This document shows positions 1 to 20,233 of a stretch of 20,853 bases of DNA, in pieces. Location: positions 1 through 20,853 of IMG/VR virus record IMGVR_UViG_2636415477_000002; one strand, 5' to 3'. Source of the stretch: a virus (taxonomy: Duplodnaviria; Heunggongvirae; Uroviricota; Caudoviricetes). The notes under the pieces were generated by a model that was not told where the DNA came from, made no database searches, and was given only the letters and a program-made list of their open reading frames with translations. The translations under genes were made by a program, and so were the position numbers. Position 1 is the stretch's first letter. The number at the start of each line of letters is the position of its first letter.

Positions 1-8
1 GATTAAGC

Positions 9-140
9 ATGTCAGACAAACTCATAACGCTGGCGAAGATCCTCTGTGTAATTGTCGGCATTTCATTTTCACTAATGCTGGTTGCCATTTTCTTTTCCAC
101 CGCCTGGCGAGTCCTGACGTTATCGGGACTGGTGGGGTGA
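9..140 (+). CDS. Hypothetical small hydrophobic protein (43 aa, one predicted transmembrane segment); may instead be the C-terminal end of a longer ORF running off the window
   Basis: ATG at 9, TGA at 138-140, translation [43 protein letters not shown]. Below the 60-aa cutoff of the ORF track. The frame is open to the window edge, so the true start is uncertain. Confidence 0.25.
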
Positions 141-147
141 AAGAGAG

Positions 148-642
148 ATGAGCCGTGTTCTGTGTGTGGTGATTATTGTCCTGGCGGGTGGCTGTGGTGC
201 GCTGTGGCTGGCAACAGACCATTACCGCGATAACGCCATCACCTACAAAGCGCAGCGCGATAAAAAAGCCAGAGAGCTGGAGCTGGCAAACGCCACCATT
301 ACTGATATGCAGGTGCGCCAGCGCGATGTTGCTGCGCTCGATGCAAAATACTCGAGGGAATTAGCCGATGCGAGAGCTGAAAATGAAACTCTGCGCGCTG
401 ACGTTGCCGCTGGTCGTAAGCGCCTGCGGATCAACGCCACCTGTCCAGGCTCCGTGCGTGAAGCCCCCACCACCTCCGGCGTGGATAATGCAACCGGCCC
501 CAGACTGGCAGACGCCGCTGAACGGGATTATTTCATCCTCAGAGAACGGTTGATGACAATGCAGAAGCAGCTGGAAGGGGCGCAGGAATATATCCGCACT
601 CAGTGCACTAAGCTGGCTTTTTATTATCCGGAGAATGCATGA
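148..642 (+). CDS. Rz: Rz inner-membrane spanin (i-spanin)
   Basis: 164 aa with an N-terminal TM segment; matches lambda Rz through motifs such as [15 protein letters not shown] and [19 protein letters not shown]. Start preceded by AAAGAGAG. Confidence 0.93.
368..553 (+). CDS. Rz1: Rz1 outer-membrane lipoprotein spanin (o-spanin), embedded in the +1 frame of Rz
   Basis: Entirely inside Rz in another frame; lipoprotein signal with lipobox LVVSAC and the proline-rich [27 protein letters not shown] matching lambda Rz1. Alternative start at ATG 383 (MKLCAL...). Confidence 0.9.
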
Positions 643-863
643 AGAAATTACTGGTAACCGTAAAGCCTTTTCAGGGAACAATTCCGTTCCGTATTTTGCA
701 GCGTGGTCGTGTTCTTGTTGAAGGTTCGTTCAGTGGTAAATGTACGCAATTACACTCCCGGACCTTTCAGGTGAATGCCACGAATGAAGAGCTAACCGTT
801 GAGTGTACGATGAATGCCGCTAAATGCCGCATGGTATCCGCTGCATTACAGCCAGTGTGTTGA
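639..863 (+). CDS. Hypothetical small protein (74 aa, basic, 4 Cys), translationally coupled to Rz
   Basis: ATG at 639 overlaps the Rz stop (ATGA). No signal peptide or TM segment evident. I do not recognise the protein. Sits where lambda carries bor and other morons. Confidence 0.4.
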
Positions 864-1074
864 GCGACCTTATTATCCATGCGCGGTATTGTCGCCGTAT
901 TCCTGCATTAACAGAGACCGCAGCCCGACCGGGAGACTCCTCTGCGCGAGTGTGCGGGGATAATCAAAAACGATACACACCGGGGTTTACCGCGTTAACG
1001 GAGCGTGGCGTTGTCCCCTCATGGTCGCTCGTCCGGTGCGATGGTGGAAGAAACTGGATTTTGTTGCAACTGAT

Positions 1075-1300
1075 AATCATTATCATTTTCTCGGGTCCTT
1101 TCCGGCGATCCGGGCCGTTACGGGGCGGCGACCTCGCGGGTTTTCGCTATTTATGAAAATTTTTCGGGAAAAAGCATGTCAGTTCTTCTTGTTGTTAACT
1201 TATTGTTTTTAAAGAAATAATCATCAAGAAAGAAACGACATCAGAACGCTGAAAAATCTGTCTTTTTTGGCATTTCATGTCGTAACTGATTTTTGATAAG
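1075..1300. other. cos: cos site (cosQ-like, cosN and cosB with R3/IHF/R2/R1-like elements)
   Basis: 1075-1122 resembles the lambda right end (GATAATCATTATCA...GGGTCCTTTCCGG-GATCCG...GTTACG); 1123 onward matches the lambda left end (GGGCGGCGACCTCGCGGGTTTTCGCTATTTATGAAAATTTT). Downstream, GTCAGTTCTTCTTG and AAGAAAGAAACGACA resemble gpNu1-binding R sites. Confidence 0.85.
1123..1134 (+). other. cosN: cosN cohesive-end sequence GGGCGGCGACCT (12-nt 5' overhang after terminase nicking)
   Basis: Exact match to the lambda 12-nt cohesive end as I recall it, flanked by lambda-like right-end and left-end sequence. Confidence 0.85.
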
Positions 1301-1310
1301 GAATTGCTGA

Positions 1311-1859
1311 ATGAATGTTAATAAAAAGAAGCTTGCTGAAATCTTTAATGTCGATATACGCACTATTGATCGCTGGCAAACTCAGGGGCTCCCTCAGATA
1401 TCTGGTGGAGGAAAAGGTGTTGAGGTCATCTTTGATTCTGCGAAGGCGATCGAATGGTATGCTCAGCGCGAAGCTGATATTGAAAATGAAAAACTCCGTA
1501 AAGAGGTCGAGGATTTGAGGGCTGCCAGCGAATCAGACCTTCAGCCCGGCACCATTGATTACGAACGTTACCGACTGACGAAGGCACAGGCAGATGCACA
1601 GGAACTGAAAAATGCCCGCGACAGTGGGCAGGTCATTGATACAGGGTTTTGCCTTTTTGCTCTGGGAAGACTGGCACAGGAGATCTCTGCCATTCTTGAC
1701 TCCATTCCATTGTCCATGCAGAGACAGTTTCCGGCACTGACGCCCGCTATGCTTGATTTCCTGAAAACCGATATAGCAAAGGCGGCAAACCGATGCGCAT
1801 CAACGGCAGAGAAGTTACCGGAGATGCTGGATGAATACCTCAGAGAAGCAGCTAAATAA
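1311..1859 (+). CDS. nu1: Terminase small subunit
   Basis: 182 aa; N-terminal winged-helix region and [41 protein letters not shown] match lambda gpNu1; sits directly downstream of cosB. Confidence 0.95.
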
Positions 1860-3759
1860 CTTTGCTGTTGTTTGTGGAGTGGCACTTCGTGGGCTTTTAC
1901 GCCCACTGCCTGTAACCACCGTTGAATGGGCCGATCAAAATTATTATTTGCCCCCGGAGTCCTCTTATCTTGCTGGGCGGTGGAAGACGTTGCCCTTTCA
2001 GGTGGCAATAATGAACTGCATGGGTAATGACCGGATCCGCACAATTAATCTTATAAAATCAGCTCGAGTCGGTTACACCAAAATGCTGATGGGCGTTATT
2101 GGTTACTTTATTGAGCATAAAAACCGTAACAGTCTTCTGTTTCAGCCTACGGATTCTGCCGCTGAAGATTTTATGAAGTCTCATGTGGAGTCAACATTAC
2201 GGGATGTTCCCTGTCTGAAAATTCTTTCCCCCTGGCTGGGGCGTAAGCACCGGGATAACACACTGACATTAAAAAGATTCACGTCCCGTGTGGGGTTCTG
2301 GTGCCTGGGTGGTGCTGCCGCCAAAAACTACCGTGAAAAATCCGTGGACGTGGTCTGCTATGACGAACTTTCCTCGTTCGAGCCGGATGTCGAAAAAGAG
2401 GGCTCGCCAACCCTGCTGGGGGATAAGCGTATTGAGGGCTCGGTATGGCCAAAATCCATTCGCGGCTCGACGCCTAAAATAAAAGGCTCCTGCCAGATCG
2501 AAAAAGCGGCCAACGAGTCGGCGCATTTCATGCGTTTTTATGTGCCCTGCCCACACTGTGGGGAGGCGCAGTATCTGAAATTTGGCGATGAGTCCACGCC
2601 TTTTGGCCTTAAATGGGAGAAGGACAGTCCAGAAAGTGTTTTCTACCTCTGTGAACATCATGGCTGCGTGATCCATCAGTCTGATCTTGACCAGAGCAAC
2701 GGGCGGTGGATCTGTGAAAACACGGGCATGTGGACCCGTGACGGCCTGACGTTTTTCAGCGCTGCGGGTAATGAAATTCCGCCGCCGCGCTCCATCACAT
2801 TCCATATCTGGACGGCGTACAGTCCGTTCACCACCTGGGTACAGATTGTCTATGACTGGCTGGATGCACTGAAAGATCCCAACGGCCTGAAAACCTTTGT
2901 GAACACCACGCTGGGCGAGACCTGGGAAGAGGCCGTGGGCGAAAAACTCGATCACCAGGTGCTGATGGATAAGGTTGTGCGTTACACGGCTGCGGTGCCT
3001 TCCCGGGTGGTTTATCTGACGGCGGGCATTGACTCGCAGCGAAACCGTTTTGAGATGTATGTCTGGGGATGGGCTCCGGGAGAGGAAGCCTTTCTGGTGG
3101 ATAAAATCATCATTATGGGGCGTCCCGATGAGGAAGAGACGCTGTTACGTGTGGATGTGGCGATCAACAAAAAATACCGCCATGCAGACGGAACCGAAAT
3201 GACCATTTCCCGTGTCTGCTGGGACACCGGAGGGATCGATGGCGAAATTGTCTATCAGAGGTCAAAAAAACACGGTGTTTTCCGGGTGCTGCCGGTAAAA
3301 GGTGCATCTGTTTATGGCAAGCCGGTGATCACCATGCCAAAAACCCGCAATCAGCGGGGCGTGTATCTGTGCGAAGTGGGGACGGACACCGCAAAAGAAA
3401 TTCTCTATGCCCGTATGAAAGCCGATCCCACGCCTGCGGATGAAGCCACGTCGTATGCCATCCGTTTTCCTGATGATCCGGAGATTTTTTCGCAGACAGA
3501 GGCGCAGCAACTGGTCGCGGAAGAGCTTGTGGAGAAGTGGGAAAAAGGAAAGATGCGTCTGCTGTGGGATAACAAAAAGCGGCGTAACGAAGCGCTGGAC
3601 TGCCTGGTGTATGCCTACGCGGCATTACGTGTGTCCGTGCAACGCTGGCAGCTTGATCTGGCTGTACTGGCAAAATCCCGGGAAGAAGAGACGACCCGGC
3701 CAACCCTTAAAGAACTGGCAGCGAAGCTGTCCGGAGGAGTGAATGGTTACAGTCGCTGA
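1831..3759 (+). CDS. A: Terminase large subunit (ATPase/endonuclease)
   Basis: 642 aa, collinear with lambda gpA ([54 protein letters not shown]); start overlaps the end of nu1. Confidence 0.97.
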
Positions 3760-3949: not shown

Positions 3950-5538
3950 AACGAACGCCTGTCCTGATTGATGTGAACGGCGTTCCGCTTCGTGAGAGTC
4001 TCAGCTACAACGGGGGCGGTGCAGGATTTGGCGGGCAAATGGCTGAGTGGTTGCCACCGGCGCAGAGTGCCGATGCGGCCCTGCTACCCGCGTTGCGTCT
4101 GGGGAATGCCCGGGCAGATGATCTGGTGCGCAATAACGGAATAGCGGCTAATGCGGTGGCTCTGCATAAGGATCACATTGTCGGGCATATGTTTCTGATC
4201 AGCTACCGTCCGAACTGGCGCTGGCTGGGGATGCGGGAGACCGCAGCAAAAAGCTTTGTCGATGAGGTGGAGGCGGCCTGGTCGGAATACGCCGAAGGGA
4301 TGTTTGGCGAGATCGACGTGGAAGGAAAACGCACGTTCACGGAATTTATCCGTGAAGGTGTGGGCGTTCATGCGTTTAACGGCGAAATCTTTGTGCAGCC
4401 GGTCTGGGATACGGAAACCACGCAGTTATTCCGTACGCGTTTTAAAGCCGTGAGTCCGAAACGGGTGGACACGCCTGGACACGGTATGGGGAACCGTTTT
4501 CTGCGGGCCGGTGTGGAGGTCGATCGATATGGCCGTGCCGTCGCGTACCATATTTGTGAGGATGATTTTCCGTTCTCTGGTAGTGGACGATGGGAACGGA
4601 TCCCGCGTGAACTTCCCACCGGACGTCCGGCCATGCTGCATATTTTCGAGCCGGTGGAGGACGGGCAGACCCGTGGGGCTAATCAGTTTTACAGCGTCAT
4701 GGAACGGCTGAAGATGCTCGATTCCCTGCAGGCAACACAGCTTCAGTCGGCCATAGTGAAGGCGATGTATGCAGCGACGATTGAAAGTGAACTTGATACC
4801 GAAAAGGCCTTTGAATATATCGCCGGTGCGCCGCAGGGGCAGAAGGATAATCCGCTTATTAATATTCTGGATAAGTTCTCCACCTGGTATGACACGAATA
4901 TCGTGACGCTGGGCGGTGTCAAAATTCCGCACCTTTTCCCCGGTGATGATCTGAAACTTCAGACCGCGCAGGATTCAGACAATGGATTTTCGGCGCTTGA
5001 ACAGGCGCTGCTGCGGTATATCGCTGCCGGTCTTGGCGTTTCCTACGAACAGTTGTCCCGTGATTACTCGAAGGTCAGTTATTCAAGTGCCCGCGCATCC
5101 GCCAATGAGTCGTGGCGCTATTTTATGGGGCGGCGAAAATTTATTGCGTCCCGGCTGGCCACGCAGATGTTTTCCTGCTGGCTGGAAGAGGCACTTCTTC
5201 GGGGGATTATTCGTCCGCCACGGGCACGTTTTGATTTTTATCAGGCGCGATCAGCCTGGTCACGGGCTGAGTGGATTGGAGCCGGAAGAATGGCCATTGA
5301 CGGGCTCAAGGAGGTTCAGGAATCAGTGATGCGCATTGAGGCCGGACTGAGCACGTATGAGAAAGAGCTGGCGCTGATGGGCGAGGATTATCAGGACATT
5401 TTCCGCCAGCAGGTCAGGGAATCTGCAGAGCGGGAAAAAGCCGGACTCTCACGTCCGGTGTGGATAGCGCAGGCGTATCAGCAGCAGATAGCGGAGAGTC
5501 GCAGGCCGGAAGAGGAGACAACACCACGTGAGACGTAA
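3946..5538 (+). CDS. B: Portal protein
   Basis: 530 aa, collinear with lambda gpB (GNARADDLVRNNG, FEPVEDGQTRGAN-FYSVME, LQSAIVKAMYAATIESELDT, LLRYIAAGLGVSYEQLSR). ATGA overlap with W. Confidence 0.97.
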   Translation: MKRTPVLIDVNGVPLRESLSYNGGGAGFGGQMAEWLPPAQSADAALLPALRLGNARADDLVRNNGIAANAVALHKDHIVGHMFLISYRPNWRWLGMRETAAKSFVDEVEAAWSEYAEGMFGEIDVEGKRTFTEFIREGVGVHAFNGEIFVQPVWDTETTQLFRTRFKAVSPKRVDTPGHGMGNRFLRAGVEVDRYGRAVAYHICEDDFPFSGSGRWERIPRELPTGRPAMLHIFEPVEDGQTRGANQFYSVMERLKMLDSLQATQLQSAIVKAMYAATIESELDTEKAFEYIAGAPQGQKDNPLINILDKFSTWYDTNIVTLGGVKIPHLFPGDDLKLQTAQDSDNGFSALEQALLRYIAAGLGVSYEQLSRDYSKVSYSSARASANESWRYFMGRRKFIASRLATQMFSCWLEEALLRGIIRPPRARFDFYQARSAWSRAEWIGAGRMAIDGLKEVQESVMRIEAGLSTYEKELALMGEDYQDIFRQQVRESAEREKAGLSRPVWIAQAYQQQIAESRRPEEETTPRET

Positions 5539-16819: not shown

Positions 16820-19800
16820 ATGGGTAAAGGCAGCAGTAAGGGGCATACCCCGCGCGAAGCGAAGGACAACCTGAAATCATCCCAGATGCTGAGCGTGATA
16901 GACGCCATCAGTGAAGGGCCGATTGAAGGTCCGGTGGACGGATTAAAAAGTGTGCTGCTGAACAGTACGCCAGTGCTGGACAGTGAGGGGAATACCAATA
17001 TCTCCGGTGTCACGGTGGTTTTCCGGGCAGGTGAGCAGGAGCAGACACCGCCGGAGGGATTTGAATCCTCCGGCTCCGAGACGGTGCTGGGTACGGAAGT
17101 GAAGTACGACACGCCGATTACCCGGACCATCACGTCTGCAAACATCGACCGTCTGCGCTTTACCTTCGGTGTGCAGGCACTGGTGGAAACCACCTCAAAG
17201 GGGGACCGGAATCCGTCGGAAGTCCGCCTGCTGGTTCAGATACAGCGTAACGGTGGCTGGGTGACGGAAAAAGACATCACCATTAAAGGCAAAACCACCT
17301 CACAGTATCTGGCCTCGGTGGTGGTGGGTAACCTGCCGCCGCGCCCGTTCAATATCCGGATGCGCAGGATGACGCCGGACAGCACCACAGACCAGCTGCA
17401 GAACAAAACGCTCTGGTCGTCATACACCGAAATCATCGATGTGAAACAGTGCTACCCGAACACGGCACTGGTCGGCGTACAGGTGGATTCGGAGCAGTTC
17501 GGCAGCCAGCAGGTGAGCCGTAATTATCATCTGCGCGGGCGTATTCTGCAGGTGCCGTCGAACTATAACCCGCAGACGCGGCAATACAGCGGTATCTGGG
17601 ACGGAACGTTTAAGCCAGCATACAGCAATAACATGGCCTGGTGTCTGTGGGATATGCTGACCCATCCACGCTACGGCATGGGGAAACGTCTTGGTGCGGC
17701 GGATGTGGACAAATGGGCGCTGTATGTCATCGGCCAGTACTGCGACCAGTCAGTGCCGGACGGCTTTGGCGGCACGGAGCCGCGCATCACCTGTAATGCG
17801 TACCTGACCACACAGCGCAAGGCGTGGGATGTGCTCAGTGATTTCTGCTCGGCGATGCGCTGTATGCCGGTATGGAACGGGCAGACGCTGACGTTCGTGC
17901 AGGACCGACCGTCGGATAAGGTGTGGACCTATAACCGCAGTAATGTGGTGATGCCGGATGATGGCGCGCCGTTCCGCTACAGTTTCAGCGCCCTGAAAGA
18001 CCGCCATAATGCCGTTGAGGTGAACTGGATTGACCCGAACAACGGCTGGGAGACGGCGACAGAGCTTGTGGAGGATACGCAGGCCATTGCCCGTTACGGT
18101 CGTAACGTCACGAAGATGGATGCTTTTGGCTGTACCAGCCGGGGGCAGGCACACCGCGCCGGGCTGTGGCTGATTAAAACAGAACTGCTGGAAACGCAGA
18201 CCGTGGACTTCTGCGTGGGCGCAGAAGGGCTTCGCCATGTACCGGGCGATGTCATTGAAATCTGTGATGATGACTATGCCGGTATCAGCATCGGCGGGCG
18301 CGTGCTGGCGGTAAACAGCCAGACCCGGACGCTGACGCTCGACCGTGAAATCACGCTGCCATCCTCCGGTACCACGCTGATAAGCCTGGTTGACGGAAGT
18401 GGCAATCCGATCAGCGTGGAGGTTCAGTCCGTCACCGACGGCGTGAAGGTGAAAGTGAGCCGTGTTCCTGACGGTGTTGCTGAATACAGCGTGTGGGGGC
18501 TGAAGCTGCCGACGCTGCGCCAGCGCCTGTTCCGCTGCGTGAGTATCCGTGAGAACGACGACGGCACGTATGCCATCACCGCCGTGCAGCATGTACCGGA
18601 AAAAGAGGCCATCGTGGATAACGGGGCGTACTTTGACGGCGACCAGAGCGGCACGGTGAATGGTGTCACGCCGCCAGCGGTGCAGCACCTGACCGCCGAA
18701 GTCACCGCAGACAGCGGGGAATATCAGGTGCTGGCGCGCTGGGACACGCCGAAGGTGGTGAAGGGCGTGAGCTTCCTGCTCCGTCTGACCGTAACAGCGG
18801 ATGACGGCAGTGAGCGGCTGGTCAGCACGGCCCGGACGACGGAAACCACATACCGCTTCAGGCAACTGGCGCTGGGGAACTACAGGCTGACAGTCCGGGC
18901 GGTAAATGCGTGGGGGCAGCAGGGCGATCCGGCGTCGGTATCGTTCCGGATTGCCGCACCGGCAGCACCGTCGAGGATTGAGCTGACGCCGGGCTATTTT
19001 CAGATAACCGCCACGCCGCATCTTGCCGTTTATGACCCGACGGTACAGTTTGAGTTCTGGTTCTCGGAAAAGCGGATTACCGATATCAGGCAGGTTGAAA
19101 CCACAGCCCGCTATCTTGGTACGGCGCTGTACTGGATAGCCGCCAGTATCAATATCAAACCGGGCCATGATTATTACTTTTATATCCGCAGTGTGAACAC
19201 CGTTGGCAAATCGGCATTCGTGGAGGCCGTCGGTCGGGCGAGCGATGATGCGGAAGGTTACCTGGATTTTTTCAAAGGCAAGATAACCGAATCCCATCTC
19301 GGCAAGGAGCTGCTGGAAAAAGTCGAGCTGACGGAGGATAACGCCAGCAGACTGGAGGAGTTTTCGAAAGAGTGGAAGGACGCCAACGATAAGTGGAATG
19401 CCATGTGGGGCGTCAAAATTGAGCAGACCAAAGACGGCAAACATTATGTCGCGGGTATTGGCCTCAGCATGGAGGACACGGAGGAAGGCAAACTGAGTCA
19501 GTTTCTGGTTGCCGCTAACCGTATCGCATTTATTGACCCGGCAAACGGGAATGAAACGCCGATGTTTGTGGCGCAGGGCAATCAGATATTCATGAACGAC
19601 GTGTTCCTGAAGCGCCTGACGGCCCCCACCATTACCAGTGGTGGCAGTCCTCCGGTATTTTCCCTGACATCAGACGGAAAGCTGACCGCTAAAAATGCGG
19701 ATATCAGTGGCAGTGTGAATGCGAACGCCGGGACGCTCAACAATGTCACGGTAAATGAAAACTGTACGATTAAGGGCATGCTGGAGGCGACTCAGGTCAG

Positions 19801-20233
19801 AGGTGACTTCGTTAAAGCTGTATCCAAATCATTTCCGAAACAGGCTGGTACGTGGGGTAACACGGAAACACCAAACGGGACGGTTACAGTCACCATCAGC
19901 GATGATCATAACTTTGACCGTCAAATCATTATTCCGCCCATTATCTTTAACGGAATAGCGTATAGCGATCCGGGAAGTGGTAATAACCCGGGAGGTACAA
20001 GATACACGGGTTATGGTTTTGAAGTTCGCAAAAACGGTGTATTAATCGCATCCAGAGAAACTAAAGGGGCCATTCCCGGTAGCTACAGTGCGGTTATTGA
20101 TATGCCGAGTGGCAGGGGAAGCGTCACTCTGGAGTTTAAGGTTTTCCATAAAGGCAATCAGTGGGCAGGTAATATCACCGACTGTACGGTGATTGTGACC
20201 AAAAAAGCCGCTTCCGGCATCAGTATTCGTTGA
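16820..20233 (+). CDS. J: Tail tip / host-specificity protein J (central tail fibre)
   Basis: 1137 aa; the first roughly 985 residues are near-identical to lambda gpJ as I recall it; the last roughly 150 residues diverge. GAGGAA precedes the start. Confidence 0.97.

Follow-up and report, generated by a model that had tools for sequence, protein, structure and literature searches.

The 74-codon open reading frame (ORF) at 639..863 (+) of the analysed phage DNA (20,853 nt, referred to here as the window) is a genuine gene under selection. Its product, predicted to be soluble and all-beta, is identical to WP_000735655.1 and corresponds to the core of PHROG 2571. The reading that we favour, with a probability of about 60%, is that of a non-essential accessory gene of lambdoid prophages encoding a small, basic, soluble beta-sandwich, which would be made late in infection and serve as a binding module. 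The gene is an ordinary uncharacterised accessory gene and no new type of system.

Genomic Context

The window starts within a lambdoid lysis cassette. The Rz i-spanin gene (148..642, +, 164 aa) matched PF03245 (E = 2.9e-49), and Rz1, embedded in Rz in the +1 frame (368..553, +), matched PF06085 (E = 1e-21); the PHROG matches of the pair were PHROG 13 and PHROG 3198. The right-hand boundary of the slot is cosN, GGGCGGCGACCT, found as a single exact match at 1123..1134 (+), with 0 expected in shuffled sequences. Nu1 (1311..1859, +; PF07471, E = 1e-81) lies beyond it and is followed by terminase A (1831..3759). No other gene separates the ORF from the cohesive end. About 480 bp separate the Rz stop from cos, and the original prediction of a lone ORF in a short Rz-cos space agrees with this layout.

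Further ORFs were noted at the locus. Just 5' of Rz, the product of a 43-aa ORF at 9-140 (+) is a highly hydrophobic peptide with a single TM segment (maximum KD(19) of 2.87); it matched PHROG 4906 (no assigned function, E = 2.5e-27). The 43-aa PGAP 'hypothetical protein' WP_001280932.1 occupies the same position in a related prophage, and the product is a conserved small membrane protein of the lysis cassette with no assigned role. A 110-codon ORF at 824-1156 (+) runs across cosN in another frame and overlaps the 3' end of the 639..863 ORF; it is most likely spurious, because linear virion DNA would split it. Minus-strand ORFs at the Rz-cos locus did not exceed 37 aa.

Sequence Properties and Evidence of Selection

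The ORF protein has a size of 8.2 kDa and a pI of 9.7 (K+R = 10, D+E = 4). It carries cysteines at positions 35, 56, 63 and 74 and contains neither a TM helix nor a signal-peptide h-region (maximum Kyte-Doolittle(15) of 0.80), as expected from its initial description as a basic, four-cysteine protein free of such segments. The four cysteines are present but do not characterise the family: close relatives keep only C35 and C56, and none is retained family-wide. The GC-content of the ORF is 46.2% (GC3 44.0%), compared with 56.0% (58.2%) for Rz and 55.4% for the whole window. A base composition unlike that of the neighbours had been pointed out before and is evident relative to Rz, yet Nu1 (48% GC) and the spacer (47%) are likewise AT-rich.

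Because several longer spurious ORFs overlap the region, ORF length is no proof of coding. Comparison of six alleles from E. coli and Salmonella revealed dN/dS values of 0.27-0.58 at dS of up to 0.7 (Nei-Gojobori), and the length differences among alleles corresponded to in-frame codon deletions. The MK start and the Shine-Dalgarno sequence were conserved among relatives. The original prediction holds in these respects: relatives retain the frame, the ORF has a translation signal and no characterised family was matched.

The exact protein was found on at least 1000 contigs and bears the PGAP name WP_000735655.1, 'hypothetical protein'. The allele was carried by 1140 of 5426 complete E. coli genomes (about a fifth), with up to five copies per genome and always under the same annotation. 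Carriers included O157:H7 strains and EPEC E2348/69, and the allele was also found in Shiga-toxin prophages. With this record and the PHROG match given below, the earlier view of the ORF as unrecognised does not stand.

Translation Start and Overlap with Rz

As originally reported, the ORF start overlaps the Rz stop: the sequence reads ATG at 639-641 and TGA at 640-642, forming ATGA. A Shine-Dalgarno GGAG, likewise read from the sequence, lies at 630..633 (+), 5 nt before the ATG and within the extended 3' end of Rz. In the related loci L001, L004, L006, L007, L012 and L014, the Rz stop is a TAG located 24 nt 5' of the ORF start, and the Rz C-terminus reads RTQCIK* (L004, L007, L012) or RTQCIN* (L001, L006). 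Comparison of Rz-frame translations placed a CTG codon (613..615, +) at this position in the window, where Rz is read through. In L002, L003 and the window, CTG or CAG stands in place of the TAG, which makes Rz nine codons longer and produces the ATGA overlap. GGAG or GGGG was found at the same spacing throughout L001-L014, with or without the Rz overlap. The overlap, and any coupling it provides, is a derived, lineage-specific by-product and no defining feature of the gene. The proposed translational coupling to Rz was right about the overlap itself, but the overlap is derived through loss of the Rz TAG, and the gene has its own conserved Shine-Dalgarno.

A different layout was observed in L009 (3558-4001; also in L010 and L011), where about 440 bp lie between Rz and the family gene. 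The 60 nt 5' of the family gene ATG in L009 still resemble the Rz 3' end, as a duplicated remnant, and the downstream partner gene (described below) is without its first 15 codons. This suggests that recombination within Rz brought the family gene in together with the Rz tail. In P0002 (125 aa, one E. coli contig), DUF1737 (PF08410) is fused to the N-terminus of the identical 74-aa protein; either the gene directly follows a DUF1737 gene and not Rz in some prophages, or a frameshift or miscall joined both.

Family Assignment and Database Searches

The ORF protein matched PHROG 2571 (function unassigned) with an E-value of 2.8e-28 and 99.9 bits, residues 1-73 aligning to positions 100-172 of the 291-column profile. 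The same profile was hit by the long forms and by every stand-alone relative tested, the distant relatives aligning to the same positions. No match for the ORF protein was obtained in Pfam or NCBIfam. With PADLOC-DB v2, the ORF protein and six of the seven relatives tested had no match at E <= 1; the exception, P0068 (181 aa), gave a weak 13-bit match to ZorA (E = 0.0063) reaching into its non-homologous extension. Rfam yielded no match within window positions 1-2000, and a literature search found no paper on the protein or family. The earlier failure to assign the ORF to a known family is therefore borne out for Pfam, NCBIfam and PADLOC, but not for PHROG. Since PHROG 2571 is a family without assigned function, membership in it explains nothing mechanistically.

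An exhaustive profile search covering 1.84 billion representatives listed 46 proteins at E <= 0.001, three of which were artefacts. The three long repeat proteins concerned (a cystatin multimer, an HYR_4C/PKD protein and a TQ-domain protein) were rejected, as each repeat contributed 4-10 bits and the totals were sums over near-identical repeats. Most of the remaining matches were stand-alone proteins of 70-81 aa with an MK start, and the named sources were Escherichia, Salmonella, Yersinia and Xenorhabdus. In a few proteins (P0068, P0074, P0076, P0078 and the 198-aa YDC107_5380 of an N15-like phage) the domain was fused to unrelated regions, including coiled-coil-like ones. The near-invariant family positions were M1, K2, V6, Q21, G33, K34, Y43, V45 and A68.

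Predicted Structure

The AF2 model, based on a 22-sequence alignment, had a mean pLDDT of 90.9 and a pTM of 0.77 and comprised six beta-strands and one short helix. According to this model, the ORF protein is predicted to be a small soluble single-domain beta-sandwich. A Foldseek search with the model against PDB and BFVD returned nothing at E < 0.09. PDB sequence searches with three family profiles gave only chance-level matches (alpha-crystallin and retinol-binding protein, E >= 0.05). The homology and structure searches suggested with the original prediction delivered a PHROG 2571 profile match and a confident model, but no structural neighbour below that Foldseek E-value.

Distribution and Genomic Slots

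The gene was present in 28 of the 298 phage records sharing the Rz region. Close E. coli and Salmonella alleles sit directly after Rz regardless of the packaging module. Across the family, the gene was found with the lambda-type Nu1/A terminase (window, L004, L007), with HNH+Terminase_4/TerL (L002, L003, L012, L016) and with Terminase_2 (L015), and different holin and spanin types accompany it as well. A role as a packaging (cos) accessory was rejected, the gene occurring with three unrelated terminase types and also far from cos.

Distant members were confirmed by profile comparison. In Yersinia prophages (L015-17) they follow DUF2570/LysC-type spanins and are associated with two different terminase types; in mEp237 a member follows an Rz-like gene, and in the N15-like YDC107_1 the family gene lies directly after the spanin genes. 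Members were also located in the slot between the Q antiterminator and holin genes of Salmonella and Xenorhabdus (L018, L022, L108) and between tail genes I and J in HK225 and SaltyDalty (hhalign probability 96.7-96.8%), with a terminator annotated downstream of HK225_020. One member lies on the early side of Yersinia prophage L020. The synteny comparison proposed earlier thus revealed presence/absence among related phages and several alternative slots.

In the Q-holin slot, a GC-rich hairpin followed by a T-run, e.g. GGCTGCGCTAATGCGCGGCCTTTT, was observed 5' of the family gene (L018:4955-5000, L022:4955-5000 and L108:2150-2194). It resembles an intrinsic terminator and is possibly the late terminator tR' or the boundary of a cargo unit.

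A simple consensus scan of window positions 1-1400 found no sigma-70-like promoter 5' of the ORF and no terminator 3' of it; the sole terminator-like hit, at chance level, is internal to the ORF. As the scan was a crude consensus one, expression in the lysogen may still be compatible with this result. Judged by its distribution, the ORF behaves as optional, mobile, moron-like cargo. The moron reading of the original prediction is supported by optional presence, mobility and atypical GC-content, but not by an own promoter or terminator, neither being seen here in the consensus scan.

The PHROG 4280 Partner Gene

A PHROG 4280 gene (68-73 aa, no assigned function) lies directly 3' of the family gene, at a distance of 40-100 nt, in five of 11 independent contexts (L007:4265-4471, L015:5341-5559, L019:5319-5534, L024:3306-3527 and L108:2501-2716). 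A Q-holin context is among the five, and the pair therefore moves together. In a reverse test, species-level genome loci were fetched through the partner alone (n = 12). The family gene was directly upstream in seven of them (five Xenorhabdus species, Pseudocitrobacter and Scandinavium) and was not in that position in four Pseudomonas/Stutzerimonas loci and one X. bovienii locus. The partner is characterised by the motif DPDN.GWVLGW.VV..PW.L.GVYA...A and had no Pfam or PADLOC match; the sole match in a PDB sequence search was weak (E = 0.088), to the SPOR peptidoglycan-binding domain of DamX.

No partner gene was detected in the window by tblastn. A block of about 930 bp that includes the partner is present in Salmonella locus L007 and absent in the window at the junction after the ORF stop (864..870); in blastn, window positions 582-864 correspond to 3944-4226 of L007 and positions 870-989 to 5158-5276. 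The window therefore carries a solo copy of an often two-gene cassette. With six of the 11 contexts being without the partner, the cassette reading may overstate the functional link.

In a Pseudomonas prophage (L117), a weak family-like ORF was observed on the minus strand at 2688-3020 (E = 5e-5, motif ...GREIYRERFIGKCTSPGGYTRKY...), after a gpI-like tail gene. The PHROG 4280 partner gene at L117:2486-2731 (+) is convergent and overlaps with it.

Resemblance to the FNIII-A Domain of the Tail-Tip Protein

The FNIII-A domain of lambda gpJ is an Ig-like insertion (residues 72-215) that touches gpI by beta-sheet augmentation (PMC10721106). The corresponding profile PF24801 (FNIII-A_GpJ; 126 positions, gathering threshold 27 bits) was the best Pfam match of three of the 30 relatives, at 14.9-15.4 bits (E = 0.02-0.03) and in one register covering profile positions 42-93; the window protein itself had no PF24801 hit. 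An hhalign comparison of the family profile with a nine-sequence gpJ FNIII-A alignment gave a score of 22.7 (P = 0.002, probability 13%), the match centring on a shared hairpin-GK(T/A)T..Y motif. In 300 column shuffles the score never rose above 19.6 (mean 11.1), and the reversed sequence already scored 18.7. The gpJ FNIII-A profile was shallow, with viral contigs contributing near-identical copies and the protein search contributing J fragments of at least 63% identity. The window's own tail-tip protein J (16820..20233) has its FNIII-A domain at residues 86-207, to which the ORF protein showed no significant pairwise similarity. The resemblance appears weak and is treated as a lead only.

Proposed Role and Alternative Explanations

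We infer that the Q-dependent late transcript would include the gene as its final one before cos, because the gene is co-directional with the late genes, no flanking promoter or terminator was found and its Shine-Dalgarno is conserved. Translation would start from this own Shine-Dalgarno, with loss of the Rz stop adding coupling to Rz in this lineage. The family is a mobile one, inserted at several optional late-operon slots in Enterobacterales phages and often as a two-gene cassette, of which the window keeps the first gene only. Late in infection, the product would bind, in stoichiometric amounts, to a macromolecule of the phage or the host. Binding is the most likely activity because the protein has no catalytic motif, membrane anchor or export signal and is predicted to form a compact sandwich, and because the domain is also fused to unrelated domains. 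The term 'binding module' is our best guess and reflects the predicted fold class and the lack of other features. Among possible binding partners, the tail-tip I/J module is the only one with a specific lead. The protein most likely belongs to neither the lysis nor the packaging machinery: the gene is accompanied by several unrelated versions of each and is also found away from them.

Four alternatives carry less weight, in the order in which they are considered here. The gene could be the surviving half of a toxin-antitoxin-like, exclusion, defence or counter-defence module composed of PHROG 2571 and PHROG 4280. Retention of the pair across Escherichia, Salmonella, Yersinia, Xenorhabdus, Pseudocitrobacter and Scandinavium in two genomic slots, together with the clean absence of the downstream block in the window, speaks for such a system. 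We nevertheless regard it as unlikely. Neither protein was matched by PADLOC or by Pfam models of recognised toxin or antitoxin families; solo copies of the family gene are frequent and purifying selection acts on them; the partner can be found by itself in Pseudomonas; and a late-operon gene without its own promoter is ill-suited to a function in the lysogen. Ranked just behind it, and similarly doubtful, is a tail-tip accessory: a free-standing FNIII-A relative that binds the I/J module during assembly or on the virion and modulates assembly or adsorption. The single-register PF24801 matches and the hhalign score beyond all column shuffles point weakly in this direction; the scores are, however, sub-threshold and cover less than half of the domain, and the ORF protein is half the size of FNIII-A.

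A lysis accessory, regulating or helping the spanin or holin step, would make the Rz/Rz1 adjacency and co-translation functional. The family gene is directly 3' of spanin genes in most contexts (window, L001-L014, Yersinia L015-17, mEp237 and YDC107_1), overlaps Rz as ATGA in the window, L002 and L003, and travels with a duplicated Rz 3' remnant in L009. However, other members of the family precede the holin gene, lie between two tail genes or, in one prophage, belong to the early side; the accompanying holins and spanins are of unrelated types; the Rz overlap is derived; and lambda and most phages with a related Rz are without the ORF. Spanins work in the periplasm, but the ORF protein contains neither a TM segment nor a lipobox or signal peptide, and no Pfam match to spanin or lysis families (Rz, Rz1, holin, antiholin) and no PHROG lysis-category match was obtained for it. 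This role is accordingly improbable. A non-functional ORF, whether a chance frame or the decaying remains of one of the longer PHROG 2571 proteins (198-280 aa), is the least probable explanation by far. Longer homologues do exist (YDC107_5380, 198 aa; P0076, 280 aa), the match spans only positions 100-172 of the 291-column profile and spurious long ORFs are frequent in the region, but dN/dS stays below 0.6 at dS of up to 0.7, indels preserve the frame, relatives share the start codon and Shine-Dalgarno, and the AF2 model is that of a complete, confident domain. Origin as a truncated remnant of the 198-280-aa form was rejected, as the short MK-initiated form is the commonest in the family and is under selection.

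The preferred reading remains a late-made accessory binding module. A more specific version is a long shot: the PHROG 2571 protein, alone or with PHROG 4280, could constitute a new class of late accessory factor, related to FNIII-A and binding the gpI/gpJ tail-tip module. If so, it could tune tail assembly or adsorption, or disturb the tail tips of lambdoid phages that compete within one cell. A very common 'hypothetical' prophage gene would be linked to tail-tip biology, and the family would illustrate that sequences can pass between free-standing cargo genes and the insertion domains of structural proteins.

About one-fifth of complete E. coli genomes encode the protein, with Shiga-toxin, EPEC and O157 prophages among its carriers, and it has no function in the databases. 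Its gene belongs to a large pool of small late-operon cargo genes in pathogen prophages. The family is experimentally tractable, offering a folded, selected and mobile single domain, a frequent second small gene and a faint tail-tip link.

Comparison with Known Systems

Small carbohydrate-binding and lectin beta-sandwiches (CBM35/36/6 and LecB) share only 7-17% sequence identity with the ORF protein. The latter is predicted to be cytoplasmic, has about 60% of their size and showed no conserved residues for calcium or sugar binding. Within PHROG 2571, the window protein matches the family profile but corresponds to its central ~73 of 291 columns, without the N- and C-terminal parts of the N15-like P0076.

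The moron concept reportedly goes back to Juhala and Hendrix (2000) and to Cumby et al. (2012). Morons of lambdoid phages include lambda bor and lom and HK97 gp15. Unlike classical morons, the ORF has no own promoter or terminator detected by the consensus scan and is co-directional with the late operon. Lambda bor is a lipoprotein gene in the opposite orientation that is expressed in the lysogen, whereas the ORF lies on the late strand and its product has no export signal or lipobox-type hydrophobic N-terminus; no Pfam-level sequence relation of the ORF protein to Bor, Lom or Cor was found. The ORF nevertheless occupies the same Rz-cos slot as lambda bor. Like the lambdoid morons, it is optional among otherwise related phages, is located between conserved modules, occurs in several slots and has an atypical GC-content.
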